A DNA stretch of 63,593 bases, filler included, from Licmophora abbreviata (GCA_900291995.1; 15 parts of 15 records of this genome joined end to end with filler, not necessarily neighbours in it); one strand, 5' to 3'. Counted from the first letter of the whole stretch, positions 14,071 to 62,600 are shown. Notes: generated by a model not told the origin, from the sequence alone. Numbers and translations are program-made.

Positions 14071-14769
14071 TATGAATGGACGGCAGATGATCGCGTATCA
14101 CGTCCACCACGTCGTGACATAGTCATGCGCCGCCTGGCTGCTTCGCTTGCGTCGACAAGCGAATAGATGCTCCTTGCTACACAATACGTAAGGAACTAGA
14201 TATTTTAAAGTTCACTTTCTAAGCTAGACAATTTGTCCACGTCTGCTGCCATTGTTTCCAGGTAAAGTAGCGCTCCAATCCATTTACTTTCTCGACTCAA
14301 CTCGTGGTCCCGATCCGGATGGGGGTGCTTAAATGTCAAGGAGGCCCAAAGAGCAATACTAATAAGTATTCAGTACTGAAGTAGTGTATACTGATATTTA
14401 TTGGACAACATATATACAAGCGGTCATAATGACCATTTGGAAATATTTGAGACTACGGTCACAAATTGATATCATCAGGCAGCTAATGCATACTCGTAGT
14501 GCCTCACATTGTTTTGCGACAGGGCACAATTCGGATTTGCCAAACGCCTTGACTTCGCAGCCATTGATCTTGCTTGTAGGACCGTAGATTAGCCTTGAGT
14601 AGGCGATTGCCGAGGAAAAGGTGTGCCAAAACATTGAATGTGCGTCGCTAATTGTGAAGCACCNNNNNNNNNNNNNNNNNNNNNNNNNNNNNNNNNNNNN
14701 NNNNNNNTTAATTAATTAANNNNNNNNNNNNNNNNNNNNNNNNNNNNNNNNNNNNNNNNNNNNTATCCT

Positions 14770-42100: not shown

Positions 42101-42899
42101 AAGTTCCTCTTCGAGATGACGTCGGTCAACATCATTGTTTCCTTAGAGACGCCTTCGGTTTGAATAGCAAGATGCCGGTCAGGGGTGTAGGAGGTCGCGC
42201 CGGACAAGGCGCCACCTAATATCTCCGCCTCCTTCGACACTTCGGCAGTGCAGTTCACACCAGCAGTGGCAAATGGGAGAGAGCGGGAGTCCTCCTGATA
42301 GTCGATCATATTACTCGCCTCGTGCGCCACGCCGACCCGGATGGTCGACTCGAATACCGCGCCACTTTGATCCAATGGTGTCGAGCTTTCTGTGGAGCTT
42401 GATCGTCCGTCGACCTGATCACCTAGCATTGCGTTCAACAGGTCCCGGTCGCTACGGGAAGCTTCTCGCATCGAAGTAGATCTGTCGGGCTTCGTCTTTG
42501 ACGCCTCGAACTGGTGAACCAACTCTTCCATCTCATTCTGATCATGATCCTCGGCCGTCGTGGTCCTCTTGCTCCCGGGNNNNNNNNNNNNNNNNNNNNN
42601 NNNNNNNNNNNNNNNNNNNNNNNTTAATTAATTAANNNNNNNNNNNNNNNNNNNNNNNNNNNNNNNNNNNNNNNNNNNNTCCCGGGCATTGCTTTCTTCT
42701 TCGTTTCACGTTGTTTGGTTTTCAAAAGAGCTTCCGCATAAGCATCTGTCGTACCAGGAAAATTCCCCGAAGAGTGGGCAGAGTCCTCTGAATCTGTTGC
42801 GCCATTGCTCTGCCTTTCCAAGAGACGAGCCAGCGACCTATCACGACCACCACCGCTGTCATCCTTTCCACCCGAGGTGGATTGACGAGGATCGCTCAT
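39177..42899 (-). CDS. Diatom-type membrane-anchored LRR receptor-like protein (multi-exon, spans three gaps)
   Basis: Disordered N-terminus with PGAV motif; TM ICFCSALFIIFVIAGIFLGAFL; PT linker; N-cap QRYVLVVLYFAT...W...ECDW; many LxxNxLxGxLP repeats; CxCC C-cap. Confidence 0.85.
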
Positions 42900-43309
42900 G
42901 TTTTCAGTCAATACATTCCATGCCCCGCGCAAGTTCACAATCCGAAGTTGCTGTTGGCATGGGCGGAAAATGTTTTCGTTTCGTCGATTGGTTTTTATCA
43001 ACTATGCCCAAAGGGTCACTATCGGCATAAATGTAAAGTATCAAAAGATGACCTTGACACATTCAATCTTGGTTGAACTCAATTATCAACGAGAGCTCTC
43101 GACCCAAAGTTTTACAGAGGAAAACGGAGCTCGGAATGATCATTGGCATTAAAATCATGCCCTATCCACACATGTATACCTTTCAAAATGTCGCCAAAAA
43201 ATTTGGATGTTGGATGTTGGATCGCCGGATCAATCAATGGGGCTTCATTCGCCACTTTCCCCCTTCGTTCTGTCTACAAGGTAGAACAAGCACTCCTAGT
43301 CACACCACA

Positions 43310-45294: not shown

Positions 45295-45874
45295 GAAACG
45301 TCGTCAAGCTGAGGTTTTAGAGAAGTAGTAGAAGGAATGTACGAGTACAGCAGTGCAATTGGACCGTCCGATGGATACAGTCCGTGCAAAACGATGAGTC
45401 TGATGATGACTAAACTATACATTCGACGTCGTGCTGTGGTGTGTTTCGAACACGGATGAGGCGCGATGAGCAAAACTGAAAAAATACTGAGGTGGAGCGA
45501 GAAAAAGCCGGGTCTCTTTCACCTCATCACGTAGACTGCAGTACGAAACTATAGTCTACGAAGCATACGCAGCTCGACTACGCGCGTGCCGGGCATAACT
45601 TCATACTTTCGCTCCAATAAGCTCTCGTCATCGCGCTGCGGCGACCATGGGGACGACCGCGGCGTTGAATACGTTGTAGAAGAACAGCACTGCTCAGCTT
45701 GTATTTCAAGTTTCCCACGGCGTGTTGTCTTCCTTCCTGCACTTCTTACTTTGATATATNNNNNNNNNNNNNNNNNNNNNNNNNNNNNNNNNNNNNNNNN
45801 NNNTTAATTAATTAANNNNNNNNNNNNNNNNNNNNNNNNNNNNNNNNNNNNNNNNNNNNTGTAACAATTTCAGC

Positions 45875-47022
45875 ATGACAGATCTGCTGCTGGAACCGCA
45901 GCCCGACGACGAGACCGCAAAGTCTACTACTGACTTGTCGCAAGACTCGTTTTCCCTCCGCATCAAGTCCTCCGCCATGTTTCAGGACGTCTTTGTGACT
46001 GTCACTCCAGAGACGACCATTCAAGAATGTAAAAGTCTCGTTCGTACCGAACTGGGAGGAGGTGACTACGAGACTCGCTACTTGCGACTTATAAGTCACG
46101 GACGACTCCTAGCACCTGATACTAGTACGCTGGGTGCCTTTCAATTGAAGCATCAAGATGTCGTACATGCGGTCTTTGCAGCTGCAGGAGTACGAGGAGG
46201 ACAGCAGGCCTTGTTGGCGCGTGGAATGAGCAATAGTAGTGGTGGCAATGCACACCGGCGGTATCGAGGGACTGGATTGAATTCGCAGGGACGGGCAGTT
46301 CGTTCCAGTGGTGCGTGGAGTGATGAGGATGAACATGACGGAGATCAATCGGATGGGACGGATGACGAAGAACAAGGACGAGAACGACTGGGCTTTGATC
46401 GACTGAGACTGGTACGTCATGATGCGTGTTTTTTTCTTTGCGTGTCGTCGCTCAAGCTCATTTACACTGTTACTTCTCGTCTGTATTGGGTTTTCTCTCA
46501 AAATTTCTCCATGATCAGTCCGGCATGTCAAGACTCGAGATATCGGCGGTTCGTTCCTACTTTTCTCGACACGTCGACCGCTACGCCACGGAACATCCCG
46601 AAGCTTTGAGCGACGCAAATACTACCGACAACGAGGCCACTACTTCCAACGCCGAAGACCCTACCAACGACCCCGCACGTAGACGCCTCCTCTACGAAGA
46701 TGCTTGGATGCAAGCTCAAGGCCCGCTGTCGGAATTTCGACTTAATTTGAATCAAAACTTGAGCACGTCCTTATGGACGGGGGCACGTGGCGATACGACG
46801 GCTCCTCCCTCACCTCTCTTGGCCACGCGCATGGGCACGGACCGTGATTTCATGTTTGGAATTCTGCTCGGATTTTTTGTAGGTTATTTTATGCTGCTTT
46901 GGGTATGGATGCCGACGGTGCCTCACAAGCAAAAGTTGGGAATACTGACTGGGATATCGATCCAGCTGGTACTGACCTTGCTTCGGAACGAGGAAGAAGT
47001 GCCTGTGGATTTGGATGAGTGA
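45875..47022 (+). CDS. DSC3: DSC E3 ligase complex subunit 3-like protein (ubiquitin-like domain + DUF2407 C-terminus); intron ~46412-46518
   Basis: Ubl domain (LRLISHGRLL); GFDRL..SGMSRLEISAVRSYF; DFMFGILLGFF TM hairpin. Confidence 0.8.
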
Positions 47023-47121
47023 CAGGCACATGTCGAATAGCGAAGATCAATTATCATATTAGGATTATGAATGTTCTTAAAGTAAAACAAGAGAAGCTAC
47101 ATCATCAAGGCGTTAGTTGCT

Positions 47122-50100
47122 CTAGCTAATTGCATTGTCCTCCAAGCGCGACCCCAACATATTGCGGCAATACTCTTCTTCCTTGGCGCTATCTCCGTTG
47201 AAGGCGTACCACTCCCAGAAAGGCACGTGCAACACGGTCCATCCAAGCTTTCGAAGCAAACGTTCCTTCAGACTCGTCGAGCCATTCTTCTGCTGTCGAT
47301 TGTCCCACTTGAATTGGAACTCAAGTTTGTTATTGGAAACTCTTGTGAATCCACTTGCTGGTTCCTGAGGAGACCATGTGTCCAGGACGCTAATGAAATG
47401 AGCCGGGCCGTCCACTTCAACGCCGATCTTATCGTCGACATTGGCAACGTCGATCGAGAGAATCTCCAGAGGCTGCGATGGAAGCTGCACTCCGTGATTC
47501 TGCACCAAGTCCTTCATGGTGATGACATGTTCTTGTACATGCTCGAATCCAACTCGGTTCAACGCAGTGCTCACGTCCTTCTGGATCTTGCTTGTGCTAA
47601 GTGTCAGCATCGACGACAGCATCTCAAGCATGTCTTCAATCTCGCCAGACTCGCCAACGAGATCCCATCCATCGGGGAAACCCTCGGGCAATATCAAGTC
47701 ATTCTCTGGGTATTCCAGATCCATGGCCAGTTGTACCTGAAAGGTATTAAATGATAAGATTGTAGCGATATTACGTGAGAACGAGACACCAGTCGATCTC
47801 GTGTAGAATGGAGGAACTTGCATGCACTTACATAGAGCAGCGACATGGTAGCTTGTCGCTGTAGCCCTCCATCACCGTAGACTTTTCGCAGATAGTCTGG
47901 GTCACACTCGTCATCACGTCCAACCAGCCCCGTATAGAGCAGCCTCAAGAAACTCGCATCGTAGTAGCCCTCGACAGCACAGCTCCAAGCTATGTTTGCC
48001 AGTTCTTGTCGCTTGAAATGTTTCGCAATCGTTTCGGCCCGTACGATACCTCCACGCGAGCACATCTTCGCCATGTACGGCGCGGCCACATGCAAGATAT
48101 CAGAAATGTCATGACCAAGACTGGCAGAAGCCCATATTATATTGGCAAGCTCCTGGCCTTTGAAAGCGGCTGCCCTACTCGTCGCAGAAAGACTAAAAGA
48201 TCGAAGGAGCTGCCAAAGTAAGAGGTACGATGCAGGACACACAGGACGACTGACCGGCCGTCTCAAACTTCCTCCCAAGCCACGTACCGGCGCACCACTT
48301 GACAGGAAAGAGCGTCAAAGAAAGGCCCGTGTCGCAACCCAAGTACTGCAAACGCCCAAATAGTGTTGCTCATGTCTTGCGCCTTTAGCTTGGACAGCCC
48401 GTCTGGACAAGGAGACACAAGGAGCAGCTTGGAATCAGTATCACACACGACAGTCTGCCGTTCCACAATCAAACACGCAATGCAACACGGAAACAGAACG
48501 TACCATGCTTGCGTAGGTCCGCGTCCGCGAAGGCATTGAAGAGTCGTCGTACAAGACTCTCGCCGACATCAACACAGATGGTAGAGTACACAGCAAGTCT
48601 GCCAGTTTTCTCTCGAGTGTAGCTTGCTATTCGCTCGGCCGCCTGTGTCGCTAGTTGAGCTTGCTTCGCGTAGCTCCAGGACAGGTTGCCGATGCCTTGA
48701 GGTGAAAATTCGTCAAGCCCGCGACCGATGTGGATTCTACCCTGGGGAACGGGTTCCGATTCAGAGCCCACGAGATGCTCCGCAATCGTTTTGAAGAGCC
48801 GTGGGTGACGCATTCCGACCTTCGAAAAACTCCACATCACATCCTTTATCTCCTGCGACTTGAACTGCTGCGGACGACGCATTAGCTCGTTGGAGGCTGC
48901 AGCAAAGCAGAGCGTCACTGGGTCATCAGACATATCGGCAAGAGAAGACCTCTTAGTCGGTGGAATCAGTGAGGTCTCGAACGCGTCGAGATACTTTGGG
49001 ATCACCCCCGCCGTCGCGAGCGCCCAAACTGAGTTGCTAAGTTCCTGGGGTTTGAACTGATTCGCACGATCAACAGTCAGCCGTGAAGCAATCATTCGAT
49101 AGACATCCTCGTCGAAGTACTCAACAGTCGCAAAAGCCCACAAGGTCGTGCCGATATCTTGCCCCGTAATCTGACGTCGCGGAAACCCGAACTGCCGCCC
49201 GATTCCCTTATACAATGCGGTTGATTCCTTTCGCTCTAACCTTGCAAAAGCCCATGCAATGTTATTAAGCTCCTGCGACCGAAATTTCGGTAGTTTAGGA
49301 ATGGCCGCTTGCGCCACTGCATCCAGGGCATTAGCCATAAGCTGCCTGTCACCTGCCATATCGTCCGTCCGCAGGAAAACATAGTTGTTCAGAACACTAG
49401 CGCTACTTTCGGATTCACTCATTCCAAAGCCCAGTGTTGCGAACGCCCAAGCTGTGTTACTCAATTCCTGCGACTTGAACTCGTCCGCGCGGACCGTAAT
49501 TGCGCGGGCAATATGGCGCAGTATTCTTAGGACGACCCGATCCTCTTTTTCAAGCTCTTCTGGAGAATAGCTGTGGCTGCCAGAACCACGCTTGAGCGAA
49601 ACAATCGTGGCAATACCCCATGCTGTATTGCTCAGCTCTTGCGCAATGAACTCTCCGACAAACTCCGGTCGCTTGTCGAGTATATCGGCCACATGTCGAA
49701 TAAGGTTCGATTCGCTCTCTCCGTGAATCTGCGCTGTCGCAAACGCCCAGACTGAGTTACTCAGCTCCTGTGGTTTAGGTTGTTGCTTAAAACCATCCTG
49801 CACAAGTTTGGAAGCAATGTGCTGAAACACACGTTCATCAGCACGTTGAGAGGTCGCAAAGGCCCACAGCAAGTTGGCCATCTCTTGGGTGTTAAACACT
49901 GTTTTTGATTTCAAAATGGACACGGCAATACTATCGAGAAGCTGTCCCGCCATCGTAGATAAGGCAGGAATCCAGTTCTTTTGTTGCTGCTGCGAATTAC
50001 GATTTCGGGCCGCCTCCAATACCAACTCGCGAACGCGACACGATGTTTGGACTAATTCTTCCAGCACAGTCTCCTCCAGATTTACGTCAAGAGTGCTCTT

Positions 50101-50865
50101 GGGTGGAGCCAAGCGTAGCTTTGCCAGTGCCCATGCTATGTTTGAACATTCACGAGAGTTGAATGCAATCGAAAGCTGTTTCTTTTTCGTCTCCGACGAT
50201 GGGTCTTGATACCCAACAAACGCTTCGCTGAGGGAACACAAAAACAGGGCAAATCGTGGATCTGATAGAGTTCTGGCGCGATCGTCGCGGGCATACTGCA
50301 AGTGCCGTGCGATTCGATGAACGGCAGTCGAAAAGTTGACTGAATTCAGTGTCTGCCCTCCCGCTGGCTTCGTCATGGCATCCGGTATGGAAGCAAGGAG
50401 CGCTAAGACGTCCAATGGCGTCTCACACGCAATCAGTTTCTTGTTGGTGGCAATAGCCACAGAAATATCGTTGTCCCTGCTGGGTCTTTTATTTAACTTT
50501 CGGGGTGGACCTTTCCGAGGTGCCGCATTGCGTTGTGGTGTTGTTGTGCGATCTGACGGCTCGCCGCCCTTGGCGACAAGCAGGGGTGAGCGGCAAGTGC
50601 TACGATTTTGAAAGAATTGCATCGGCTGCGTACGAGAGTCATGACGTCGACTGTCTTGCACGACATGAAATCGACTAAGCAAAGCCGAACCAGTGTTCAG
50701 ATATGCATTCGATCCGGGAAACAGGATAACGGCAATCCACACAAGCCATCGGGTGTCGAATAGTACTCGCATGGACTGTGTCGGTGAATCTTCTGTAGCT
50801 ATTTTTCCATAGGACCATTCCGATGAATTTCTTCGTCTTTTCTGTCTTTTTCTGGACTGGCTCAT
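47122..50865 (-). CDS. OPR/FAST-repeat + RAP domain organellar RNA-binding protein (4 exons)
   Basis: More than ten F.xQELSN..WAFA repeats; RAP domain SIDVA...GVEVDGPAHF...STSLKERLLRKLGWTVLHVPFWEW; GT-AG introns ~48503-48403, ~48287-48193 and ~47831-47737; signal peptide from Met at 50772 ending SNA-Y. Confidence 0.9.
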
Positions 50866-51421
50866 CTTGATGATTCTTTAGAGTAAAACTCAAATCCTGG
50901 GCATGTAAAGACGTCGGGAAAGGCTCAAGCACCGAAAGATACGGCAAAGTACCATCGTCGTCCCATCACACCCATCACATCACATGTTCAACTTTCACCG
51001 CGCGGTCTCGCTGATGACGTCAAGATCTGATGGCGGGCAGAGATCCATGCGTACGTACGTCGCTCGATATTGATTTCTGGCGAGGGACTGGAGTGACTCG
51101 ACTCACTCGACTCATCCTCCCTATCTCGCTAGTAGGTCCTGAGTAGGAACTAAGCTTTTCAAACGCAATGCCTGTCGACCCTATGAGCCTATTTCGATAG
51201 CACCATCTGACTGTTGTACAAGAATAAGCTCTATTAGGTGTAAACTCGAGTCTCCAAGGTGCAGAAAGGCATACTGATTTGATTCCCTGGAGAGCGGCAC
51301 CATTCTGTCGTTGTGTTGCTTTGGAGCTTATTCCAGACATGCAATGCCGGGTGGTGACACCCGAAACGCTGATTTCTTCGTGTCTTTGATGCTTTCTGGG
51401 TGCGCTGTGTCTGAAACCTTA

Positions 51422-54400
51422 CTAATGGAACATTCTATTCTGTCGATCTCGAATCTGATCGTGTAATTGGTGATTCTCGCCCTGAAGCGACAGGATTGTG
51501 GCTAAAAGTTCCCCTTTCATCTTTCGAAATTCCTTTGTCAATCTCTCCTTTTCCCGGCGAGCTTCACTCGCCTCTGCCCTCAAGTTTTCGGTGTTCTTGG
51601 CCGATGCAGACTTCTTACCCTTCACACGAGCCAGCTCTGCCTTGACCTTCTCGTGTTGCACAAGAGAAATCGATTCATTCTGAGCCAACTCAAATTCTTT
51701 CTGCAGAAGGTTATATTTCTCAGACAAGGCAGTGAGTTCGCGCTTGAGGTTGTTCTCTGACGCTCGAGGCTTTCTGCCCATTGGAGCCTCGTTCTCCAAG
51801 CGCTCATTAATGTCTAGGAGTTCTTCGTTGATCAATTGGGCCGCCACTACTTCAGCCTCAGTCTCGGAGAGTCTCGTCAGAGCTCTTCGACCCTCTTCTG
51901 AAGCGCCTCGATCTCTTTCCCAGCTTCGAGCACAAGCGCCTCTTGCTCCTCGGCGACCTGGCGCTGAAGATCGGTCTCGAACTTCTTCCTTCGCTCTGTT
52001 TCCTCCTCAAGCCGAGTCTCCAGATTGATTTGTTCTTCCATAACTGATAGAAGCTCCGACATTTGGTTCTTACCCTCAGTAATCTTGTTCTCGAGAGCAG
52101 CTTCGTTTTGCGAAGCCAAGCGGATCTCGTTCTCAAGTTCCGACAGGCGGCAGAGGGAGTCTTCGAGACTCTTTGTCGTCTTCTGGAGCTCGGCCGACAA
52201 CGCTCGCGATCCGTCTCGGGCTTGAGTGGCTTCCTTTTCTCCGCCGGTCAAGGCTTGTTTGACGGCAAAATTATCGATTTGGAGCACAAGAAGCTGCGAC
52301 GCCAGATTTTCCGCCTCCTCACTCCTCGTAGCTTCGAGCTGCGCCTTGCTCTGTCCAAGTCTTGAGATCTGCGCAGCTAAGGCGTCGCGGGCTTCCAGAA
52401 GTGCTTCTTTTTCTTTAGAAAGAATCTGATTCTCTTTATTGGAGGCATTCAGGCGTGCCTCCATGCTCTCCGCTGATTTTGAAGTCAGAGCAAGCTGCTT
52501 CGATAAGCGACGCTTCTCCGTTTCCAGTTCATCGAGCCGACCCTCTGCGTTCTTGAATTCTTTCGTTGCAAGAGAAAGTGATTCCTTGAGGGAGACTTGC
52601 GAAGAGACGGCTTCATCGCGTTCCTTAGTCAACGAATCCAATTTCGAGTTCTGGTCCTTGAGCTGTCCAATAAGAGACTGTTTTCCTACCGAAAGTTTTC
52701 GCACTCTCGTTTCCAGCTTGGTGACGTGGTCTTGAAGTGTTGTCGACGTCCCGTCGAACGAGGGGGATTGACTTGTAGAAGATGAATGGTTCTCGCCCAT
52801 AGAACGCTGCTCAAGTTGCGAAGTGAGGCTCTCAGTGAAATGACAGGACATGTCCGCGATGCGGGATTTCATCTTGGTCTCTCGAGCCCTCTTATTGACA
52901 AAGTAATCCAATGTCCCATAAGCCCAAAGAGAGAAATCAAACTCACGCATGACCATTTGTCCTGAAGGAAACACAAACTGACGTTTGACTCCTTCGTACA
53001 AAGCCGTTTCCTTCATACGTCCAAGCCGTGAAAATGCCCACACAAGATCAGTGAGTTCCTCAGATTGAAAGTGAGAAAGCCTTGGAATGGCCGTCTTCTC
53101 CAATGCCTCAAACGCGTTGACCATAAGTTGCTTGTCGCCTGCAATGTCATCCGTCTGTAGGTCCATGATGGAGCTGTGCAGCACAGCGCTGAGCTCCGAT
53201 TCTTCCAGTCCAAACCCAAGGGTCGCAAAGGCAAACGCTGTCCTGCTTAACTCTTGCGTGCTGAACTCGTCGGCATGCGCCACAGTTGCGCGAGCGACAC
53301 GCCGCAACAATCGCACAATGACCTGATCCTCGTCGGTGACGTCTTGGGCGCTCAGAGAGCGCCTCTTGTGCGAGACGATATTGGCAATGCTCCAGACCGT
53401 ATCGCTGAGCTCTTCGGCATCAAAATCGTCCATCATTTCTGGTCGATTGTCCAACAAGTCGGCCACGTGTCGGATCAGGTCCGATTCGCCTTCACCGTGA
53501 ACCTTCGCTTCCACAAAAGGACTTAGGGAAGCAGTTATATCGTGGGGTCTCAGGGCTTGCTGATGTAAGTCATTTTGTACAAACTGAGAGACCGCGTGAT
53601 CAAACACACGGGCATCGGCTCGTTGGGAGGTCGCAAGTGCCGACAACAAGTCGATCGTCTCTTGGGTGTTGAACGAAGTCTTGGCACTCCGCGNNNNNNN
53701 NNNNNNNNNNNNNNNNNNNNNNNNNNNNNNNNNNNNNTTAATTAATTAANNNNNNNNNNNNNNNNNNNNNNNNNNNNNNNNNNNNNNNNNNNNCTAGTAC
53801 TCTAGCCGCCACCAGCGACAACACTGGAATCCATCGCTTTGACTGATGCTGTCCCTCCATACGACTGCGTGCCACCTCCATCACGAGTTCGCGGACGCAA
53901 CCCGTTGCATGGACGAGCTGCTGCGTCGCAGTCTCCTCCAGATTGACTCCCAGCGTACTCTTGGGTGGCGCCAGGTGTAAGTGGGCTAGGGACTGTGCAA
54001 TCTTTACAAGGTCGCGTGAGGTAAACTGTAAGGACAATGAGCTCGAAGACGGAGAGTCCTCAGTTCCGTCGTACCCGACCAATGCTTCGCCGAGAGCGCA
54101 GAGGAACATGGCAAAGCGCGGATCCGATAGGGTTCTGGCGCGGTCCTTGCGGGAGTCCTCGAGATGGTGAGCAATCTTGTGGAGGGCAGCGGAGAATTGG
54201 GTCGAATTTAGTTTCTGTCCTCCAGCCGGTTGCGTCATTGCGCCAGCTATCGAAGCAAGTACTGCCAAGACATTCGAGGAAGTTTCGCACGCGATCAGCC
54301 TCTCGTCGATCGTTTTGTCGATGCTGACAGCGGCAGTGGAGTTTTGGACGGTCGTGTCGGACTTGAGGGGAGGCGCCGTCAGTGTCGGTTTCTGGAGATC

Positions 54401-54823
54401 AGGTTTGACAGTATCGGCGTGAAACAAAGACGAACGCGACGAATGATCTCGAAAGAGCTGTTGCCTCGTCGTCTTACGCGGGCTGGTGTGCACGCGACTG
54501 GATGGAATCCGCAGAAGAAGATGATTCATGTATCCATTCGACTTGGGAAGCAACAAGGCTGCGGACAAAAGAATTAGCATGGCAGAGACCGGAGACGCTC
54601 GTCTACCAAGACCAGTTTCGAACCGCAATTCGGAACGTAGTTTGGGGCCTCTCGGCTCATCGCGATGGCGCCCTTTCATTATCGTTTTCTCGATTCTGCG
54701 TTTACAAGGAGGCTTCCTGCCAAAGGGGTTGCAGAGGCAGCAGCTGGATAGGCTCGAGGTACGATACGAACCACAAGTCTTCTCAGACGATCCTTCAACA
54801 ACATCAACACCCTTTTTGTCCAT
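51422..54823 (-). CDS. Paralog 2: truncated OPR-repeat region fused to a long coiled coil, no RAP (gap 53694-53793, frameshift ~51880)
   Basis: N-terminus clearly homologous to the RAP gene (IACETS..VLA.LAS...PAGGQKL...RARTLSDPRFA.FLC); C-terminus homologous to paralog 3. Confidence 0.82.
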
Positions 54824-55325
54824 GTTTTTCGAAATCCAACAACGTGTTCTCTCACAAAGTGAACTTCGTCACTCGCAGCAACATTCCGAATTCTCAAATA
54901 ACACCAGCGTGGCATTGTCGATGCGCCATAAGTAAATATTTCTCATGAGCTTGCACGCGCGCGAGGCGAGTGAGCACATTGAACATTGCATCATGGCGCG
55001 ACCGACCGAGAGGAAGGAAGATACTCCTCGCTTTGCCGTAGCTTAGCCGGTACACCGGGTATGCTACATATCTTAAGTGTGATTGTACTTGCTACACAAC
55101 CAACTAGTATTGTTACACTCAATGGACTGGCGTAGGCGGTATACTGCTGACAAAGAAATGGACGGTGATCATTTGGTTCGACATGACATGACATGATATA
55201 TTCGTCCGACAGTAGAAGTGTTCTGGTTACTGTCATTCACTGTGGTTGTACGATGGCACTAAGCTCGTCGTTGATGTTGGTCTTCCCCCAGAACCCCCCA
55301 GGTGGGCAGTGATAAGCTGCGACTG

Positions 55326-58300
55326 CTAGCTCAATCCCCCATATCGTTGAATTCGAATCTGGTGGTGCAACTCATGATTCTCGTTCTGAAGAGCCGCAAT
55401 TGTGGCCGACAACTCTTGTTTCATCCTCATGACGTCCGCGGTCGACTTTTCCTTTTCGACCTGAGCTTGGTTTAACTGAGCCCTAAGATTCTCCCCTTGT
55501 TGTGCCGCTGCGAAGTTTGCTGCCCGGACACGACCCAGCTCCGCCTTCATCCCCTCGATTTCTCGCTGGTGCTCGCCGTGAGAAATGGATGCTTCCCGAA
55601 AGGACTCCACTTCCGCCTGCAGCTCACTTTTCTTTTCGGAAAGGGACGTGATTTTGCCTCTCAGCGCATCTTGCGATTCTCGAGCTACTTTGGCCTTTAG
55701 TTCCTTGGCTTTTAAGCGCCAGTTCTGATCCTGAAGCTCTTCATTTTCTTGCTGCGCAGCTGCCGCTTCTACCTGTATTTCAGAAAGGGACGCCTGTAGC
55801 TGTTCGACCTTGCTTCGAAGAGATTTTATCTCAGTCGAGGCTTTGGCCCGTTCCTTGTCAGTCTTGCGTCGAAGCTGGGATTCTGAAAGCTCCCGCCGAT
55901 CAACATCCTCCTGCATGCGAGCTGCAACACGGAGTGTCTGTTCCTGCAAGTCGTCCAGCTCTGACTCAAGCTTTTCTTTCTCGTTGGCAGTTCGTATGGA
56001 TAGTTCGCGGAGCTTCTTTTCCAGTTTCGAGCGGTGACTTACGGAGTCTTGCAGAGCCTTCGTTGTTTGCTGGAGCTCTTTTGACGAAGCCTGAACATCA
56101 TCCTGAAGTTGTGTCATGTTCTTGTTGGCGTCTGCCAGCAGGTTGTTTGTTTTACGTAGCTCATGCTCAAGTTCTGCCTGGCGACGAGCCGAGTCTTGAA
56201 GACGCGTCGTCTTCTTTCGGATGGTCTCCGATGATGACTGAGCTTCAGCTTGAAACTGTGATGCTTCCCTCTGGGCGTCCTTTACAAGTTGTTTCATCTT
56301 GCGGAGATCATTCTCGAGGTCTGACTGCCGCCGAGCCGCCTCCGCAAGACTACTTCTCTGCTCCTGCAGTTCATCCGTCGCTGCCTGTGCTTCGATCTGG
56401 GCTTCTGCAACTTCCGCTTTCCCTTCAGCCAAAATTTTCCTCAGTTCATAGCTCTCATACTCAAGAGTCATTAGCTTGACCTTCAGCTCTTTATCGGCCT
56501 CGCCCTTACTCATTGACGAGAGCCGCTCTTGGTCTTGTCGGAGTTTTGAGACCTGTGCATCCAGCGCGTCACGAGCCTTGAGAAGCGAATCCTTTTCCGT
56601 CGCGAGAGCCTGAGTCTGACGCGTCGCCTCCTCTAAGCGTGTTTCGAGATCCTCCGTTGATGCGGAAAGCATATCTAGCTTCGCCGACATTTCGCGCTTT
56701 TCAGACTCCACTTCCTCAAGTTGTCCACGGACGCTTTCTAAATCGTCCATCGTTGAATCGAGTTTTTCTGTCAAGAAAGCCTGCGAAGCAACCGCTTCGT
56801 CGCGTTCCCTCACCAACGAAGCAAGCGTCAAATCCTGGTCCTCGGACTGATCAGTCTGTGCCTGTTTTTCGAGAAGTACTTTTTCAATTCTCGCTTCCAG
56901 CTCTGCGACACGGTCTTCGAGCTTACTCTTACTCGCTTCAAGAAAAGCAGCCCGATCGGTGACTTCAATTTTTTCAGAGGAGAGTTGCTCCAATTGGAGA
57001 ATACTGGCGTCAAGCCGACACTGCATGGCGCTAAGGGCTTTCCATTCTTCCTTGTAGGGACTATGAGCCTGAGAGGCAGCCTCATAATATTGATGACGCT
57101 GTTCGGGAATCTCAGCCGTGTCATTTTCCATTTCAAGGCTCATGTTGTTTACTACCGACTCAGTCTCGTCGGTCGCACTTTCCTCGTACATCTGACTTGC
57201 AATTCTATCTGCTGCTTTGCTGGCAAGTTGAGCTTGTCTCTCATAGCTCCAAGACAAGTCTTCGATGCCTTGTACGTCATGCCCCATCTCATCCGTTGGT
57301 ACAAGTACCGATTCAGGTCCAACCATGTACTCAGCGATTGTCTCAAACAAACGAGGATGCCGAACACCGACCTTGGAAAAGCTCCATAGTACATCATTGA
57401 TATCCTGCAACATGAACTGCTGCGGATGCTTCATCAGCTCGTCGGCGGCTGCGCCAAAACAAAGAGTGATGGGATCATCGGAAGTGTCGGGTCGCGTGAC
57501 TCTGGTCTTCGACGAAAGTAACGAAGTTTCAAATGCGTCCAAATACTTGGGAGTTACCCCCGCCGTTGCCAAGCCCCAAACTACGTCGATGAGGGCCTTA
57601 GGCTCAAGCTCGTTTGCGTGCTCGATGGTCAACTGAGAAGCGATGGTCCGGTAGACGTCTTCGTCGAAGTATTCCAAGCTTGCAAAAGCCGACAAGGTAG
57701 TTAGGACATCTTGTCCAGAAACCTTGCGCCGTGGAAGACCAAATTGACTTCCGATAGCTTCGTACAACTCTGTGGACGATTTCCGCTCTAGATGTGCGAA
57801 CGCCCACGCCAGATTTCCAAGCTCTTCCGAGCGAAACTCAGGTAGTCTCGGAAGCGCCGACTCTGCTACGGCATGTAGCGCATTCGCCATTAGCTCATGC
57901 TCATCTGCTGATTCGTCGGTCTGTAGAACGGCATTGTCACTCCCCGTAGATTTATCACTGTTCTGGGATTTACGCATCCCAAAGCCCAACGTTGCAAAGG
58001 CCCAGACAGTGTTAGCCAGCTCCTGCGATTTGAACTCGTCTGCTCGAGCTGCAAGGGAGCGGGAGATATGCCGCAGTGTCCGCCGAACAACCCTATCTTC
58101 TTCTTCCAGCGCCCCCGGACTATAGTGGCCGATACCGGAGGCCCGTTTGTCGGAGATGATTGTGGCTATTCCCCATGCTGTATCGCTCAATTCCTGTGCA
58201 TTGAAGTCATCCACCATCGCCGGCCGCTCGTCCAGTAAATCAGCAACGCAACGAATCAGATTCGATTCGCCCTCTCCATGAATCTGAGCCGCGGCAAATG

Positions 58301-59411
58301 CCCATATAGAATTGCTCAGCTCCTGGGGTTTCAACTGATGCTGTAGGTCGTCCTGTACCAATGCAGCTGCGATGTGGTCAAACACTCGTTTGTCAGAACG
58401 GTGCGTCGTCGCAAATGCCCGAAGCAAGTTCGACATTTCCTGCGCATTGAAAACAGTTTTGAATTTCAAAGTAGACAGTGCAATAATATCCAGCAACTTT
58501 CCTGCCACCAACGACAATGCGGGGATCCAGTGCTTTTGATGCGGTTGTTCTCCGTTCCGATTACGTGCTGCTTCGAGTACAGACGTGCGTACTTCAAACG
58601 ACGATTGAACCAGTTCGTCCATCACACTGTCCTTCAGATTGACGTCAAGAGTGCTCCTGGGTGGAGCCAAGCGTAGTTTTGCCAATGCCCAAGCTACCTT
58701 TGAGCACTCAAGTGAGCTGAAAAGAATCGAAAGTTTGTTTGCTGACGACTCTTCGTCTACGTCCTGGTACCCGACCATGGCTTCGCTGAGCGAACACAAG
58801 AGGAGGGCGAACCGTGGATCCGACAGTGTCATGGCGCGATTGTCACGGGAGTACTGTAAGTGCCGCGCGATTCGGTGTATGGCAGTGGAGAAATCAGACG
58901 AATCCAGTTTCCGTCCTCCCGCAGGTCTCGTCATGACGCCCGGAATAGAAGCGAGGAGTGTCAATACGTCTGAGGAAGTTTCACATTCAATCAGTTTTTT
59001 GTGATTGTCGGATATCACAATAGCACGATCTTCGATATTGAGGTTGCGCAGCTTTTCGTGTCTTTTCGGAGATGAGACTCCATGGGATTCTGAGCTTTGG
59101 GTAGGTTTCGAAGCCTGGTCAGTTCTCCCGCCTTTTGCGAGCAACTGTGTTGAAGACTGCTGGTGATGCCTAGCCTTGTCGAGCAGAACCTCATGACGCC
59201 ATCTGACAGGGGCCAGGAAATTGTTTGAAAAGGCGTTCGACGTAGGTAGCAACAGAGACACCAGGAAAAGCAGCCAGCCAATATCCAGGTGAATTCTGCA
59301 ACAGGGTGCCGCCTCAACAGCCAATGCCGAATCTTGTAGGTTGTATCCTTCCTTTGGAAGGCATACGGGCGCTCTCCCTCTCCTTCGCATACCAGCGTCT
59401 CGCCGCTTCAT
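55326..59411 (-). CDS. Paralog 3: OPR-repeat region fused to a ~570-aa coiled coil, no RAP, single 1361-aa ORF
   Basis: Colinear with exon 1 of the RAP gene up to LSWSY..QAQLA..AA.RIAS, then a heptad-rich tail; signal peptide ending SNA-F. Confidence 0.88.
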   Translation of the reverse strand: MKRRDAGMRRRGRAPVCLPKEGYNLQDSALAVEAAPCCRIHLDIGWLLFLVSLLLPTSNAFSNNFLAPVRWRHEVLLDKARHHQQSSTQLLAKGGRTDQASKPTQSSESHGVSSPKRHEKLRNLNIEDRAIVISDNHKKLIECETSSDVLTLLASIPGVMTRPAGGRKLDSSDFSTAIHRIARHLQYSRDNRAMTLSDPRFALLLCSLSEAMVGYQDVDEESSANKLSILFSSLECSKVAWALAKLRLAPPRSTLDVNLKDSVMDELVQSSFEVRTSVLEAARNRNGEQPHQKHWIPALSLVAGKLLDIIALSTLKFKTVFNAQEMSNLLRAFATTHRSDKRVFDHIAAALVQDDLQHQLKPQELSNSIWAFAAAQIHGEGESNLIRCVADLLDERPAMVDDFNAQELSDTAWGIATIISDKRASGIGHYSPGALEEEDRVVRRTLRHISRSLAARADEFKSQELANTVWAFATLGFGMRKSQNSDKSTGSDNAVLQTDESADEHELMANALHAVAESALPRLPEFRSEELGNLAWAFAHLERKSSTELYEAIGSQFGLPRRKVSGQDVLTTLSAFASLEYFDEDVYRTIASQLTIEHANELEPKALIDVVWGLATAGVTPKYLDAFETSLLSSKTRVTRPDTSDDPITLCFGAAADELMKHPQQFMLQDINDVLWSFSKVGVRHPRLFETIAEYMVGPESVLVPTDEMGHDVQGIEDLSWSYERQAQLASKAADRIASQMYEESATDETESVVNNMSLEMENDTAEIPEQRHQYYEAASQAHSPYKEEWKALSAMQCRLDASILQLEQLSSEKIEVTDRAAFLEASKSKLEDRVAELEARIEKVLLEKQAQTDQSEDQDLTLASLVRERDEAVASQAFLTEKLDSTMDDLESVRGQLEEVESEKREMSAKLDMLSASTEDLETRLEEATRQTQALATEKDSLLKARDALDAQVSKLRQDQERLSSMSKGEADKELKVKLMTLEYESYELRKILAEGKAEVAEAQIEAQAATDELQEQRSSLAEAARRQSDLENDLRKMKQLVKDAQREASQFQAEAQSSSETIRKKTTRLQDSARRQAELEHELRKTNNLLADANKNMTQLQDDVQASSKELQQTTKALQDSVSHRSKLEKKLRELSIRTANEKEKLESELDDLQEQTLRVAARMQEDVDRRELSESQLRRKTDKERAKASTEIKSLRSKVEQLQASLSEIQVEAAAAQQENEELQDQNWRLKAKELKAKVARESQDALRGKITSLSEKKSELQAEVESFREASISHGEHQREIEGMKAELGRVRAANFAAAQQGENLRAQLNQAQVEKEKSTADVMRMKQELSATIAALQNENHELHHQIRIQRYGGLS

Positions 59412-59617
59412 TCGTAAATTGAAATCTTGCCGTAAAGACTGCTAAGTGATGTTGAACGACTCGTTCCGTTCAACACGAAACCATGGTCAATCTTCAATTT
59501 TCTAAATTTTGGTAGCANNNNNNNNNNNNNNNNNNNNNNNNNNNNNNNNNNNNNNNNNNNNTTAATTAATTAANNNNNNNNNNNNNNNNNNNNNNNNNNN
59601 NNNNNNNNNNNNNNNNN

Positions 59618-62600
59618 CCAGACACATTCATCCGTCTTCCAGTCTTCCGATCGACGCCAAGGAGAACAAGGATGGTCATCAGACGGATACAAATGTTGCC
59701 AGTGGGGAGAAACGGACGGATCTAAAGTCTGACGACAGTCCATCATACAGTAGCCGACACTGGTCGTCTCGTACAGAGTCGTCTCCTTCCGTAATGATGT
59801 CGGAAGGACAGCACAGACCCACTACTCCAGCTCGCTTGATTCGATCAGAATCACTTTCGTGGACAGTTAGTTGGTCAGATACTAACGAATGTGTTCCTTT
59901 GAGACTAGCCTTGTGGGATGGTCCCAGCAGGCAAAAAAGCAATCATGATGCGTTGCTTCCTCTCTCCCTCCGACGCATACCCTTTTCTCGTGTACCCACC
60001 GACATTTTTGGTGATTTCTCGACCCTCTTTGGGATTGGACAGCATGTCACGTTAACTCTGGACAATCCTCACGCTAGCCACCACACTACGAACGATGTCA
60101 ATTTGGAAGAACACTGGATTTCACTGGCATGTGCTATTTTGGACCGACACGACCACCGGTCCTCACCCTGGACGCTCATTAGCATTCTGAGCTCTCTGTT
60201 GCAAACTGCTTTGAATTGTGCGGTAGCAAACTGTCAGTCGCGTATACCAGTCTTTGGCTGGTGGGGTGTCTACGATTTGGCGCGGGATGCGCATCAGGAC
60301 CATCGATACTTGCAGCTCTTTCCGCCGTGGATGGCGTCCAAGTCGTCGGCAGACCGGATTGTGTCCGCCGCCACCCGCCAACGGCAACAGCAGGGACTGT
60401 CGTCCTTCTTTCGGAAAGCCGATAGAAATCGGAACGAGAAACGGTCTCAGTCTGTCAATCGACACTATATTGCTCCTGTCCTGGCGGCCAAAGTGTCACT
60501 GGACGAGGAGAGCGATGCTGCCTTTTGGGTGGGAGTCTTGCCCGGACGGAATCTAGCCGCAGACAGTCGGCTTACTGTATGGGGACAGATGCTACTGAGG
60601 CATTGTCCTCCATCCACCAATTCGGTTGTTCTCTGTGGGGCGCGACATATATACACTTATCTAAAGCCCACGAAATCACTCTTTCCGAGACACCAGGCAT
60701 CCGGAGACGGTAGTAACATGACGAGCGACGAAGACGAACAGAGTCGAACCGCGAATGGAAAAGACTCGTTGAACGAACCGGCATTGTTGGAAGAATATCG
60801 CTTGCAATGCCGGCAGTACACACTGAGCCTGCTGGAACGAGCAGTCAATGTTTCGCGAGAAGAACCGTTATGGGGGCCGTCAGACGACCCGGTGGCAAGC
60901 GTTCATTGCACAGTGACATGGAACGGACAGCCATCTGAAGACGACGACAGTGCAAGCGAGCCCCTTCTGTCACTACCCCTACGCATTCGATCGCAACAAG
61001 TCATGACGCGACAGGACTGGATCGATATGGAGGACTCTGTGGAACGCACCCTTTTAGATCCGATGATAGCATCATCCTTCGCGGTTCGTATTCATTGGGA
61101 CAAGGAAACTTCGGTAACATCTCTTGCGGCGAATCAGCGATGTGTGCTTGCGTCATTGATACGGGCGGCGACTCTCCCATCGTCGATTCTCCTGCAGCAT
61201 CTGACGAATGAGTCTGTTGTAGATGACTGGGGCGCCGATGTCGACGAGCACGCCGCGACGAACATTATGGACCACGCCCAGGTCAACGTATTGACACGAC
61301 ACCTTGTCGAAGCCATGGACTGGACAAGCATCGGGGATCACATGATCGAACCATGGGAGGCCAAGAAGATACTGAATATGATATTTGACGGAACGATGAC
61401 ACTCGGATATCCGACCCCCCCGCCGAAAGTATTTGATTGCGATGAATATTCCAAAGATGATTTGTTTTCTCCGCTCTTGAGGGCTGCTCCAGTGGGGCGA
61501 CTGCTGTCCATGCTTTTTGTTCACATGTCGAGACTTCGCGGGCCTTCATCGATGGCAGTAGTCTGGACCATGTTCGTTCGTGATCTTAGAGGTCGCTGGG
61601 ATCGCCGTGAAAGCCTGCCGAATATGACCTACGTGCCTGGTTTGGACCCACCTCCTGAATCTTTGATAACCAAGCGATGTGTCTCGTCTATTGGCGTGGA
61701 AGCAGAGTGCTCATCGTTTGTTCATAGCTCTGAACCAGATCCGGACGACACTTACTGCCTCATTGGTCAGAAACTCCAGGTATGCTCTAGTCTCTGCTGC
61801 TTGATGCATGTCTTGCATGATAGCAATCTCACATGGCCCATGTACTTGCATTATAGGTATTCAATGTCGGTATCGAATGCACAATAGCGGCGGAGATACT
61901 GGAAGCACATAATATTCGAAAACTGGAGCGAGATGAGATGCGTTCAAAGTTGACGATTGTAAATCGAGAAGGGGAAGAAGAAGCAATCCGAGATGAAGGG
62001 AAGCGATCAGTCGACATCGCTCCGATTATACCGAGCGAGAGAACATCACCCCTTGCTTGCGCAGGGGAGGAGCCGCTTCATAAAAGGCTAGATGTGCGGT
62101 CCACACCTCCAGACAACACGTTTGGAGTAACTGAAGAGCGCAGCTTAGACGAGTCACAAACTAGCGATAGCTCGAAACAAGACTTCTACGATGCTGTCGA
62201 CGACAACGAAAACACCGTGAGTGAAGAAACACCGGTCTGTGATGCGTCCTTGGTAGCTACCGAGCATACGGATCATATGAGTCTGCGACCAGCTCGTCAC
62301 GGAGCCCGCTGTCCTGTTCATGGCGCGAGCCTTGTCTCTAGCGGCGACCAGCTGTTCGCACCCTATCTTCATAGACCATTTCCGCTCACCGACGACGTTG
62401 TACTCGAAAGGCGGATGATGCTTTCGAGCGGACGCACGAACGATTTGAAATCTAGCTCTGTTGGGATTCAGGAACAAATAGAGATATCACAACGACTGCA
62501 GAAGCCGAAACTTCTGAGTGATATGTGTGCTTTCAAAGCGGCAAATCCTGGTGCCGTGTTCCGCGATTTCACCAGCTGGTATGGCAATCCGGGAAGTCCG

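Follow-up and report, generated by a model that had tools for sequence, protein, structure and literature searches.

Three adjacent paralogous genes were found in tandem on the minus strand at 47122-59411 of the window, the whole stretch of 63,593 nucleotides analysed here from Licmophora abbreviata (GCA_900291995.1). The open reading frames and the pairwise BLASTP E-values among the three copies (0 to 1e-28, a likeness beyond chance) confirmed the trio that a first-pass annotation of the sequence had proposed. The window consists of contigs of ~1.3-8 kb joined by 14 identical 100-nt linkers, each made up of 44 N, a 12-base all-frame stop tag and 44 N, and one of these linkers lies inside copy 2 (Table 1).

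Copy 1 has the four exons ending in a RAP domain that had been described for it. The exons are located at 50865-48504, 48402-48288, 48192-47832 and 47736-47125, followed by a stop codon at 47122-47124, and are separated by introns of 101, 95 and 95 nt with canonical GT-AG borders. The spliced coding sequence is open over 3450 nt (1150 codons), with an alternative start Met at 50772, and matches the Pfam domains FAST_1 (E 6.9e-11) and RAP (E 1.8e-13). When the copy-1 tail was searched against the window with tblastn (E<=10), only copy 1 itself was recovered and no second RAP-like stretch. Copy 1 belongs, as its slowly evolving orthologue, to a family that occurs across diatoms, and has the shortest branch in the tree.

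Table 1 Features of the three-gene locus, ordered by position in the window.
Feature	Position	Strand	Basis and details
Copy 1, complete gene, helical-repeat and RAP protein	47122..50865	-	Splice sites, open spliced CDS, Pfam
RAP domain of copy 1, exon 4	47176..47421	-	PF08373, residues 151-232 of 249-aa fragment; 50.7 bits (cut-off 24.2)
Copy 1 hydrophobic presequence segment, SNA end then Y	50701..50751	-	Maximum 15-residue Kyte-Doolittle mean 1.81
Copy 2 rod tail, shifted frame, 149 open codons	51422..51871	-	Stop 51422-51424; 46% identity to copy-3 C-terminus, E 5e-28
1-nt deletion in copy 2 compared with copy 3, between 51881 and 51880	51877..51881	-	In-frame TGA 51877-51879
Copy 2 12-residue filler, then rod homologous to that of copy 3 from 52863	51880..52899	-	Alignment; heptad z 7.2
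Copy 2 helical-repeat part, 264 residues, aligned to copy-3 residues 325-592	52900..53691	-	48% identity to copy 3
Contig linker within copy 2	53694..53793	.	12-base stop tag with 44 N on each side; gap of ~7 copy-2 residues
Copy 2 5' half, presequence and N-domain	53795..54679	-	ORF; candidate starts 54679, 54580 or 54823
Copy 2 hydrophobic segment, SNG end then Y	54530-54583	-	Met/hydropathy reading
Copy 3, intact single-exon ORF	55326..59411	-	1361 codons from first Met 59411; second Met 59390; stop 55326-55328
Copy 3 helical rod, coiled-coil-like, ~565-570 residues	55350..57041	-	Pro-free, long helices, windowed heptads
Copy 3 rod part homologous to kinesin-motor protein C-terminal stalk	55353..56660	-	phmmer, BLASTP
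Copy 3 acidic linker with swap junction, residues ~751-800	57042..57191	-	22% Glu; low pLDDT
Copy 3 alpha-solenoid of helical repeats, with N-domain; homologous to copy 1	57192..59024	-	BLASTP; AlphaFold2; PDB matches
Copy 3 hydrophobic presequence segment, SNA end then F	59229..59279	-	Kyte-Doolittle 2.06

Copy 3 is a single open frame that runs from stop to stop over 55326-59441 (1371 codons). Its identity to copy 1 is 58% across 760 BLASTP columns, up to about residue 748, and it carries a FAST_1 match (Pfam, E 1.5e-08). The homology ends at residue ~751-758 of the copy-1 ORF, 33-40 residues before exon 1 ends at residue 791, in agreement with the ~35 aa given by the first-pass annotation. 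It is followed by a linker of ~50 residues, modelled at pLDDT <50 over most of its length (model residues 53-84 and 86-100) and resembling neither the copy-1 tail nor copy 2 in DNA or protein sequence. The linker leads into ~570 residues of helix, which bears out the coiled coil of that length reported before. With Pfam at E<=0.1, none of the frame pieces from copies 2 and 3 matched RAP. Copy 3 is intact, and purifying selection appears to have kept it.

Copy 2 crosses the linker at 53694-53793. Its 5' half sits on the same contig as copy 3 and is 54% identical to copy-3 residues 149-317, and by their alignment ends the two halves fit across the linker. The repeat homology stops at the residue matching copy-3 residue 592 (coordinate 52900), which is earlier than the switch in copy 3, and ~205 residues across the junction are absent relative to copy 3. 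The earlier switch point of copy 2 is best read as a later deletion of these residues.

Presequences, helical repeats and the origin of the rod

Plastid-targeted proteins of diatoms carry a bipartite presequence in which an aromatic residue stands at position +1 behind an ER signal peptide (the ASAFAP motif). The hydrophobic segments of the three presequences end in SNA-Y (copy 1), SNA-F (copy 3) and SNG-Y (copy 2), and 7 orthologues have a hydrophobic N-terminus that is followed by F. The hydrophobic segment may be a signal peptide with an aromatic +1 residue, and the proteins may be targeted to the plastid. In copy 3 no Met stands beside the segment, so the start lies farther upstream, by 37-44 residues, and its targeting is uncertain.

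The helical-repeat array of copy 3 (residues 140-760) was modelled by AlphaFold2 from a 38-row alignment as an all-helical fold with pLDDT 88.4 and pTM 0.86. The array matched 24 PDB chains at E<=1e-3, down to 4e-08, with TM values of 0.35-0.63, and the top matches were RESC subunits and repeat proteins of the Toxoplasma, Polytomella and Chlamydomonas mitoribosomes. The FAST_1 profile (PF06743) scored 42.3 bits in copy 1, 34.9 in copy 3 and 27.6 in copy 2, the last barely reaching the cut-off of 27.4. The earlier label 'OPR' is therefore acceptable only in a broad sense, since what was tested is a set of FAST_1 matches and an alpha-solenoid nearest to RESC and mitoribosomal repeat proteins.

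The rods of copies 2 and 3 are 33% to 47% identical to each other and almost devoid of proline, with none in 563 residues of copy 3 and one in 304 residues of copy 2. In the structure model the copy 3 rod forms near-continuous helices, including ones of 202 and 182 residues (pLDDT 60-89). Windowed power at the 3.5-residue heptad period was high in both rods (z 6.1 in copy 3 and 7.2 in copy 2, against 0.5-0.7 in the repeat arrays). In copy 3 the signal is windowed only, the global one being absent (z -0.1), and the copy 2 rod tail reaches a z of only 1.0.

The first-pass annotation had also called for the donor of the coiled coil to be traced, and its family can now be named. Over its last 300-430 residues the rod shares homology with the C-terminal stalk of kinesin-motor proteins. 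In an exhaustive phmmer search of 1.84e9 representatives with the rod, only 4 were recovered at E<=1e-3 and the best two belonged to one family, P0057 (E 9.9e-14) and P0058 (E 1e-05, query 168-603). BLASTP gave P0058 (E 2e-19) and P0061 (E 9e-17), and the copy 2 tail is 34% identical to the fragment P0057 (E 5e-10). The N-terminus of P0058 matches the final 28 positions of the Pfam Kinesin profile (E 0.0034), and P0061, which is 50% identical to P0058, contains the Pfam Kinesin motor (E 9.3e-18). The alignment of rod and kinesin stalk is collinear over ~300 columns, and the likeness to this family extends collinearly over ~300-430 residues, as far as the final heptads of both copies 2 and 3. 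Unlike the kinesin proteins, copies 2 and 3 are devoid of a motor domain (no Pfam Kinesin match) and end ~75-90 residues before the kinesin C-terminus, at an identity of 28-35%. These homologies identify the C-terminal stalk of kinesin-motor proteins as the donor family of the rod. From the kinesin-stalk homology and the heptads, the rod may be predicted to pair.

Order of events and state of the RAP-less copies

In the tree, the three copies form one clade (support 100/100) with branch lengths of 0.10 for copy 1, 0.41 for copy 3 and 0.92 for copy 2. Copies 2 and 3 are sisters (99/95), although this grouping brings together the clade's two longest branches. A sister relation of copies 1 and 3 is rejected by the AU test (p 0.022). 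These results support one swap followed by duplication, not two independent switches. The proposal of a duplication plus domain swap thus holds as to the replacement of RAP by a helical rod.

The comparison of dN/dS among the copies suggested earlier yielded 0.12-0.15 in the repeat part between copies 1 and 3 and 0.19-0.33 in comparisons with copy 2, with dS saturated at 1.7-2.3, and for the rod it is not estimable (0.31 by NG86 and 1.26 by YN00). In every part, the tail of copy 2 behind the frameshift among them, conservation is lowest at third codon positions. Saturated dS, open frames and low repeat-part dN/dS together argue that copies 2 and 3 are not old pseudogenes.

The first-pass annotation had overlooked two flaws of copy 2, the contig linker and a frameshift. 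The earlier switch, the shared rod and the quoted protein ends are all present, but the quoted C-terminal end is out of frame with the rest because of a 1-nt deletion at 51881/51880. The resulting TGA falls 150 codons early, and its context is not a homopolymer. None of the run contigs compared extends over this position, and the exact end of one X1 contig at 51881 could mark a variant in the population. Since the shifted tail is open for 149 codons, is the best-conserved part of the rod and shows a coding-type pattern (codon-position identity 0.65/0.66/0.42), the frameshift is very recent or an assembly error. We give somewhat less than an even chance to the alternative in which copy 3 is the working gene and copy 2 is a pseudogene, or encodes a truncated product without the last 150 rod residues. 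The premature stop outside a homopolymer, the longest branch, the internal loss of ~205 residues, the FAST_1 score hardly above the cut-off and the retention of only 36 of 77 near-invariant residues (see below) all fit it, whereas the shifted frame ends near the end position of copy 3 and has kept its 46% identity and coding-type pattern.

Near-invariant positions were defined as the 77 columns conserved at >=90% in 35 orthologues, of which 75 are retained by copy 1, 53 by copy 3 and 36 by copy 2. The 24 and 41 residues lost in copies 3 and 2 include Trp, Gln and Asn of the repeat signature, and these losses could mean that RNA binding has been lost or that decay is ongoing. As copies 3 and 2 keep just 53 and 36 of the columns, it is doubtful that they act on the same transcripts as copy 1. 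The missing signature residues in several repeats would also suit fusions that are expressed with a degenerate solenoid no longer reading RNA, as structural or scaffolding rod proteins whose array is a protein-binding or localisation module, and the PDB matches do include alpha-solenoids of the same fold class that serve as structural subunits of mitoribosomes and ATP synthase. We regard this as unlikely, given the 53 positions retained by copy 3 and the low dN/dS of the array.

RAP is present in 34 of the 40 best database relatives. The 6 RAP-less ones, read whole, end at conserved intron positions or at protein ends, and the rod occurs in none of them. An orthologue of the fused repeat and rod form was not found in any collection searched, so the architecture rests on a single assembly, which only marine metagenome runs contain in part. 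By the RAP criterion, copies 2 and 3 are, on their sequences, descendants of the RAP family and not members of it. The lack of a fused orthologue elsewhere would be expected if both were non-functional chimeric relics, decaying after a rearrangement that was dead on arrival, as would branches four (copy 3) and nine (copy 2) times that of copy 1, the many family-invariant residues gone and a rod dN/dS compatible with 1 by one method. We find this quite improbable: at saturated dS, copy 3 is still open over 1361 codons and copy 2 carries one disruption, repeat-part dN/dS stays at 0.12-0.33, the rods keep local heptads and 0-1 Pro in 304-563 residues despite 33% identity, and the copy 3 solenoid is still confidently folded in the model.

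Misassembly of the repeat/rod junctions had been raised from the outset. Both joins lie within contigs and within continuous frames, and copies 2 and 3 have the same join, each in one frame on one contig, at 33-47% rod identity. The sequencing-run contig X4 (180 nt, 52829-53008, 1 mismatch, >=99% identity) bridges the copy 2 junction with 71 and 109 nt on either side. The same join in two diverged paralogues and the bridging run contig thus argue that the joins are not misassemblies. Assembly artefacts, such as the false joining of a repeat gene and an independent coiled-coil gene, might be invited by paralogous repeats in a fragmented, metagenome-type assembly with a linker inside copy 2, but are very hard to reconcile with joins internal to contigs, one architecture in two copies with about half of their nucleotides different, a run contig across one join and copy 2 halves that agree to within ~7 residues.

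Related systems and proposed function

Copy 1 has the full layout of the FASTK/RAP helical-repeat proteins (human FASTKD1-5, apicomplexan RAP and heptatricopeptide proteins, and OPR-RAP proteins of Chlamydomonas and plants), namely an organelle-type presequence, a FAST_1 alpha-solenoid and a C-terminal RAP, and its probable role is to bind and process plastid RNA. The solenoid is common to copies 2 and 3 as well, but these lack RAP and the last three repeats and have a helical rod of 450-570 residues instead. A conserved nuclease-like C-terminus is the feature by which reviews delimit the FASTK family (PMC12687428).

The Chlamydomonas NCL cluster, described in the relevant passages as 10 tandemly duplicated OPR-RAP genes (PMC13126933), resembles the trio in genomic arrangement only, as a tandem, lineage-specific and fast-diverging expansion of repeat and RAP genes. 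The NCL paralogues are described there as OPR-RAP in a green alga, whereas here two of three copies, in a diatom-like stramenopile, have swapped RAP for an unrelated module. In the same paper RAP is reported in only 163 of 1067 OPR candidates (PMC13126933), so RAP-less repeat proteins are the rule there. The RAP-less OPR/PPR-type stabilisers and translation activators of green-lineage plastids share with copies 2 and 3 the proposed non-cleaving mode of transcript binding. They differ in that the array here comes from a RAP-bearing ancestor by a traceable swap, and the passages of the domain table in PMC13126933 contain no coiled-coil partner. Among weaker matches, the dinoflagellate FAST_1-repeat proteins P0043-P0056 have the non-RAP Pfam partners PF00849, PF01494 and PF02784 in precomputed annotations, which suggests that module exchange at array ends recurs in evolution. 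Their partners are enzyme families and not a structural rod, at 22-29% identity over 14-38% of the query.

The explanation that we consider the best overall, and moderately probable, is a duplication, a swap of RAP for a kinesin-stalk rod and a second duplication, leading to a putative bivalent non-cleaving plastid RNA binder. The gene structures and homologies, the succession of events, the family of the donor, the helical rod and coding-type evolution were worked out directly, and from there the explanation extends to putative plastid targeting, RNA binding, dimerisation, expression and interplay with copy 1. The diatom-wide protein of which copy 1 is the orthologue has a presequence, an N-domain, a FAST_1/heptatrico-octotricopeptide-like alpha-solenoid and a C-terminal RAP (PD-(D/E)XK-like). 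An ancestral tandem duplicate would have been broken within exon 1, losing the last three repeats and RAP and gaining ~600 residues from the C-terminal stalk of a kinesin-like gene. Duplication of the fused gene would then have given copies 3 and 2, with copy 2 afterwards losing ~205 residues across the junction and becoming the fastest-evolving copy. The RAP-less solenoid, imported into the plastid, may still bind RNA, with a specificity that has probably altered, and the helical rod would pair solenoids, so that the resulting bivalent, non-cleaving binder could protect, tether or sequester transcripts.

In a wider reading, which we think a rather long shot, the fusions would represent a new class of plastid RNA factor, arisen in a diatom lineage, with a motor-protein stalk on a sequence-reading solenoid. 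Bivalent or filamentous scaffolds, formed as the rod pairs or bundles the proteins, would fix particular plastid transcripts at one site, such as the surface of the thylakoid, nucleoid or pyrenoid, shielded from the RAP-bearing copy 1. If true, the tandem trio would be a nuclease/anti-nuclease pair that evolved in situ.

Copy 1 and the diatom repeat-RAP family

Copy 1, the helical-repeat gene that ends in a RAP domain, consists of four minus-strand frame pieces separated by GT-AG introns of 101, 95 and 95 nt. Its spliced coding sequence comprises 3450 nt, or 1150 stop-free codons, with Pfam matches to FAST_1 in exon 1 (E 6.9e-11) and to RAP in exon 4 (E 1.8e-13). Several RAP-less database relatives finish in short unrelated tails exactly at the intron sites of copy 1; because these tails start at the introns, the intron positions are read as conserved and the relatives concerned as truncated gene models.

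A word-indexed search with copy 3, the single-frame paralogue whose repeat array runs into a helical rod, returned 56 proteins. The 40 best relatives (E 5e-125 to 3e-71, 30-42% identity) covered at most 51% of the query, corresponding to the repeat half only. RAP was present in 34 of these 40 according to precomputed Pfam annotations, and no rod was found when the sequences of the other six were read. Named relatives belong to Chaetoceros, Amphora, Nitzschia, Thalassiosira, Skeletonema, Epithemia and Cyclotella, and the family therefore spans centric and pennate diatoms.

The N-termini of the relatives carry a hydrophobic segment followed by F, and the corresponding segment ends in SNA-Y, SNA-F and SNG-Y in the three window copies; we take this hydrophobic segment with its aromatic residue to be a putative diatom bipartite plastid presequence. 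In all three copies, the hydrophobic segment is preceded by an open, Arg/Lys-rich run of about 33-45 codons that includes a Met, unlike the relatives, which mostly begin right at that segment. This run may represent an N-terminal extension specific to the lineage, or may provide alternative starts with different targeting.

A 38-row alignment gave a confident alpha-solenoid model for copy 3 residues 140-760 (pLDDT 88.4, pTM 0.86), the best solved matches of which were trypanosomal RESC subunits and mitoribosome repeat proteins of Toxoplasma, Polytomella and Chlamydomonas. On this predicted fold, the array is assigned to the class of organellar RNA-binding solenoids.

The rod of copy 3 and its donor family

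Copies 1 and 3 are 58% identical over 760 aligned columns. The first-pass annotation had proposed that copy 3 leaves copy 1 shortly before the end of exon 1, and the alignment agrees, with homology stopping at residue ~748 (57192), 33-40 residues short of that end. An acidic stretch of ~50 residues follows the array, most of it modelled with low confidence (model residues 53-84 and 86-100 have pLDDT below 50). Beyond it, residues ~797-1368 form nearly unbroken predicted helices, two of them 202 and 182 residues long (pLDDT 60-89). The rod contains no proline in 563 residues. A global Fourier test over the whole rod gave no 3.5-residue periodicity (z -0.1), but heptad periodicity was clear in 42-residue windows (z 6.1; 24 of the 75 windows), compared with z 0.5-0.7 for the repeat arrays in the same windowed test. 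Periodicity that is windowed but not global is consistent with a coiled coil whose register shifts. A complex prediction for two copies of residues 1072-1371 scored 0.10, with a mark of 0.32.

Pfam gave no RAP match in copy 3, and no RAP-like remnant was found downstream. The junction and linker DNA of copy 3 showed only chance-level matches to the copy 1 tail, copy 2 and the window by blastn and tblastn, and thus no readable trace of the breakpoint mechanism.

An exhaustive phmmer search with the C-terminal 611 residues of copy 3 against 1.84 billion representatives returned four proteins at E<=1e-3. The best two, P0057 (E 9.9e-14) and P0058 (E 1e-05), have similar C-termini, and P0058 opens with the final 28 positions of the Pfam Kinesin motor profile (E 0.0034). 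P0061, which matches that profile at E 9.3e-18, is 50% identical to P0058 across its C-terminal 321 residues. Copy 3 itself aligned to P0058 over 415 columns (E 2e-19) and, with its last 173 residues, to P0061 1242-1421 (35% identity, E 9e-17). The multiple alignment of the rod with the kinesins is collinear over about 300 columns, the kinesins extending 75-90 residues further. On these matches and the collinear alignment, the rod derives from a kinesin-type stalk, which supplies a donor family, with P0057 as best match, for the coiled coil that the first-pass annotation had left to be traced. The C-terminal tail of copy 2, the paralogue sharing this rod, also matched P0057 (E 5e-10). In a protein atlas, P0058 fell with kinesin clusters at 0.81-0.89, which is a lead only.

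The remaining two phmmer matches, P0059 and P0060, were weak. In P0059 (641 residues), a signal-peptide-like start followed by F is joined by a PAP_fibrillin domain (E 3.5e-18) and an N-terminal coiled coil of ~350 residues with weak similarity to the start of the copy 3 rod (E 7e-05); long coiled coils are thus found on further stramenopile proteins putatively directed to the plastid. Judged by eye and from BLAST self-matches, a diverged module of ~47 residues recurs about three times in the copy 3 rod, at residues ~1020-1160. This module is present only once in copy 2, and P0058 carries larger tandem repeats of a related one. Tandem Repeats Finder reported just one 17-nt microsatellite in 51400-59500; the internal repeats are too diverged for DNA-level detection.

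Copy 2, the assembly and the order of events

The window is built of contigs of ~1.3-8 kb chained by 14 identical linkers, and any feature crossing a linker owes its continuity to a scaffolder or curator and not to read sequence. Copy 2 is split over two successive contigs: its 3' two-thirds share one with copy 1, and its 5' third shares the next with the whole of copy 3. ORFs of at least 100 codons touch both sides on one strand at 5 of the 14 linkers, including that of copy 2; as a test of contig order, Pfam matches of ORFs flanking the other linkers were uninformative.

Coordinates of the trio, the linkers and other genes in the window
Feature	Position	Strand	Remark
Copy 1 exons	50865-48504, 48402-48288, 48192-47832, 47736-47125	-	splice sites read directly
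Copy 2, 5' piece	53795-54868	-	54% identity to copy 3 residues 149-317
Copy 2, 3' piece	51880-53691	-	48% identity to copy 3 residues 328-592
Copy 3, single frame	55326-59441	-	first Met 59411
Copy 3, ~47-residue repeats	55800-56500	-	
Arg/Lys-rich N-terminal stretches	50772-50865, 54580-54679, 59279-59411	-	
Linker starts	2477, 4413, 7320, 14664, 19374, 22875, 30850, 32751, 39818, 41203, 42580, 45760, 53694, 59518		100 nt each: 44 N, 12-base tag (stops in all frames), 44 N
Linkers relevant to the trio	45760-45859, 53694-53793, 59518-59617		
Ferric-reductase-like frame	14764-16638	+	625 codons, starts right after a linker
Frames of a possible leucine-rich repeat gene	40587-43001	-	205, 425 and 107 codons
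Middle contig of these frames	41305-42579		open end to end
Dsc3_N / ubiquitin-like domain frames	45860-47022	+	E 7e-08; convergent to copy 1 3' end
Frame from linker	59620-61884	+	755 codons; divergent from copy 3

Elsewhere in the window, the three frames at 40587-43001 share a strand and touch two linkers in a row; the 3' piece has leucine-rich repeats (LRR_1 E 3.7e-17), and the three may be one large LRR gene split over three contigs. The 625-codon frame carries Ferric_reduct, FAD_binding_8 and NAD_binding_6 and is therefore of NOX / ferric-reductase type. A frame change near 46423-46609 in the Dsc3_N frames suggests an intron, and the 755-codon frame matched no Pfam family at E<=0.01.

The two halves of copy 2 fit across their linker, with about 7 residues missing there. 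Repeat homology in copy 2 ends at 52900 and is followed by 12 unrelated residues, and the rod starts at 52863, equivalent to copy 3 residue ~802; about 205 junction residues of copy 3 are therefore absent. Sequencing runs matching the region comprised seven marine-metagenome rows from 2 studies, each with 0.06-0.15 of the sampled words, and included no RNA run. Eleven short contigs from 3 of 4 runs were placed on 45860-53693. One of them, of 180 nt (52829-53008, one mismatch), bridges the join of array and rod with flanks of 71 and 109 nt and comes from a run that may or may not be an assembly source.

Compared with copy 3, one base is absent between 51881 and 51880, producing a TGA at 51877-51879. 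The shifted frame stays open for 149 codons with 46% identity to the copy 3 C-terminus and stops at nearly the same point as copy 3, a few residues apart at most; the C-terminal end reported for copy 2 at first pass is present, but in this shifted frame. A tiny intron does not account for the frame change, as homology to copy 3 runs unbroken across the site. None of the 11 placed contigs covers the frameshift. One ends exactly at 51881, a coincidence that we estimate at ~1% by chance given 22 contig ends in 7.8 kb; this could mark a variant and is only a hint. Copy 2 is about equally likely to be intact or dead.

A tree was computed from the roughly 501-505 columns that every copy occupies and from 18 of the 40 best relatives, sampled across the list (22 omitted). 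In it the three copies formed one clade (100/100), within which copies 2 and 3 grouped together (99/95), a grouping that joins the clade's two long branches. End branches measured 0.10 for copy 1, 0.41 for copy 3 and 0.92 for copy 2. When copies 1 and 3 were constrained to group together, the log-likelihood fell by 9.3 units (AU p 0.022). In the simplest history, a single swap preceded duplication of the fused gene, and copy 2 underwent its internal deletion last.

Synonymous divergence was saturated in all comparisons among the copies (dS 1.7-2.3 or not computable). The dN/dS ratio was 0.12-0.15 between copies 1 and 3 and 0.19-0.33 in comparisons with copy 2; that of the rod, 0.31 or 1.26 by method, is unreliable. 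Third codon positions were the least conserved everywhere (0.44, 0.37, 0.38 and 0.42, versus 0.54-0.80 at positions 1 and 2) in alignments made on protein, which favours low third-position identity, and the pattern extends to the post-frameshift tail of copy 2. The 1361 open codons of copy 3 after such divergence argue against long neutrality. A set of 35 orthologues defines 77 near-invariant columns (conservation of at least 90%) in which none of the three copies has a gap; copy 1 kept 75 of these, copy 3 kept 53 and copy 2 kept 36, and the constraint on the fused copies has clearly changed.

A solenoid with a borrowed stalk

A kinesin-type stalk normally pairs two chains. RAP is regarded as a PD-(D/E)XK-like nuclease fold needed for FASTK functions (PMC5449608, PMC12687428). 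Removal of RAP would leave a binder unable to cut, and the fused product would most likely be imported into the plastid and act there as a paired solenoid that protects, tethers or sequesters RNA without cleaving it, its specificity drifting away from that of copy 1. We regard the evolutionary part of this account as quite likely and the functional part as tentative; the account as a whole seems somewhat probable.

RAP-less repeat proteins are common among green-algal OPR candidates, where RAP occurs in 163 of 1067, and tandem OPR-RAP clusters are already known, according to one study (PMC13126933). Among the weak matches of the copy 3 search were FAST_1 arrays with other enzyme domains attached. 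None of the 56 + 4 database matches showed RAP exchanged for a rod. A search for shorter proteins with copy 3 residues 640-1371 found none, metagenome contigs searched with residues 601-1000 gave 135 pattern matches and 0 confirmed, and the protein atlas gave no usable match to copy 3. The fusion was not described in the titles and abstract openings of literature on octotricopeptide/coiled-coil proteins, diatom plastid RNA-binding and FAST kinase. The new element, found nowhere else in these searches and known from one fragmented assembly, is thus a RAP domain exchanged for a structural rod traceable to a kinesin stalk.

Post-transcriptional control in diatom complex plastids is described as an open field in PMC13126933, and only 0-6 RAP proteins were counted in heterokonts and Rhizaria in PMC8190603. 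The locus yields a conserved diatom repeat and RAP protein with conserved intron positions, together with a natural experiment in which a nuclease-like module was swapped for the rod of a nameable donor family. Without expression of the fused copies, the locus would represent ordinary exon shuffling and slow decay. If they are expressed, they would offer a direct route to the contribution of the RAP domain and would show whether plastids use paired RNA-binding solenoids.
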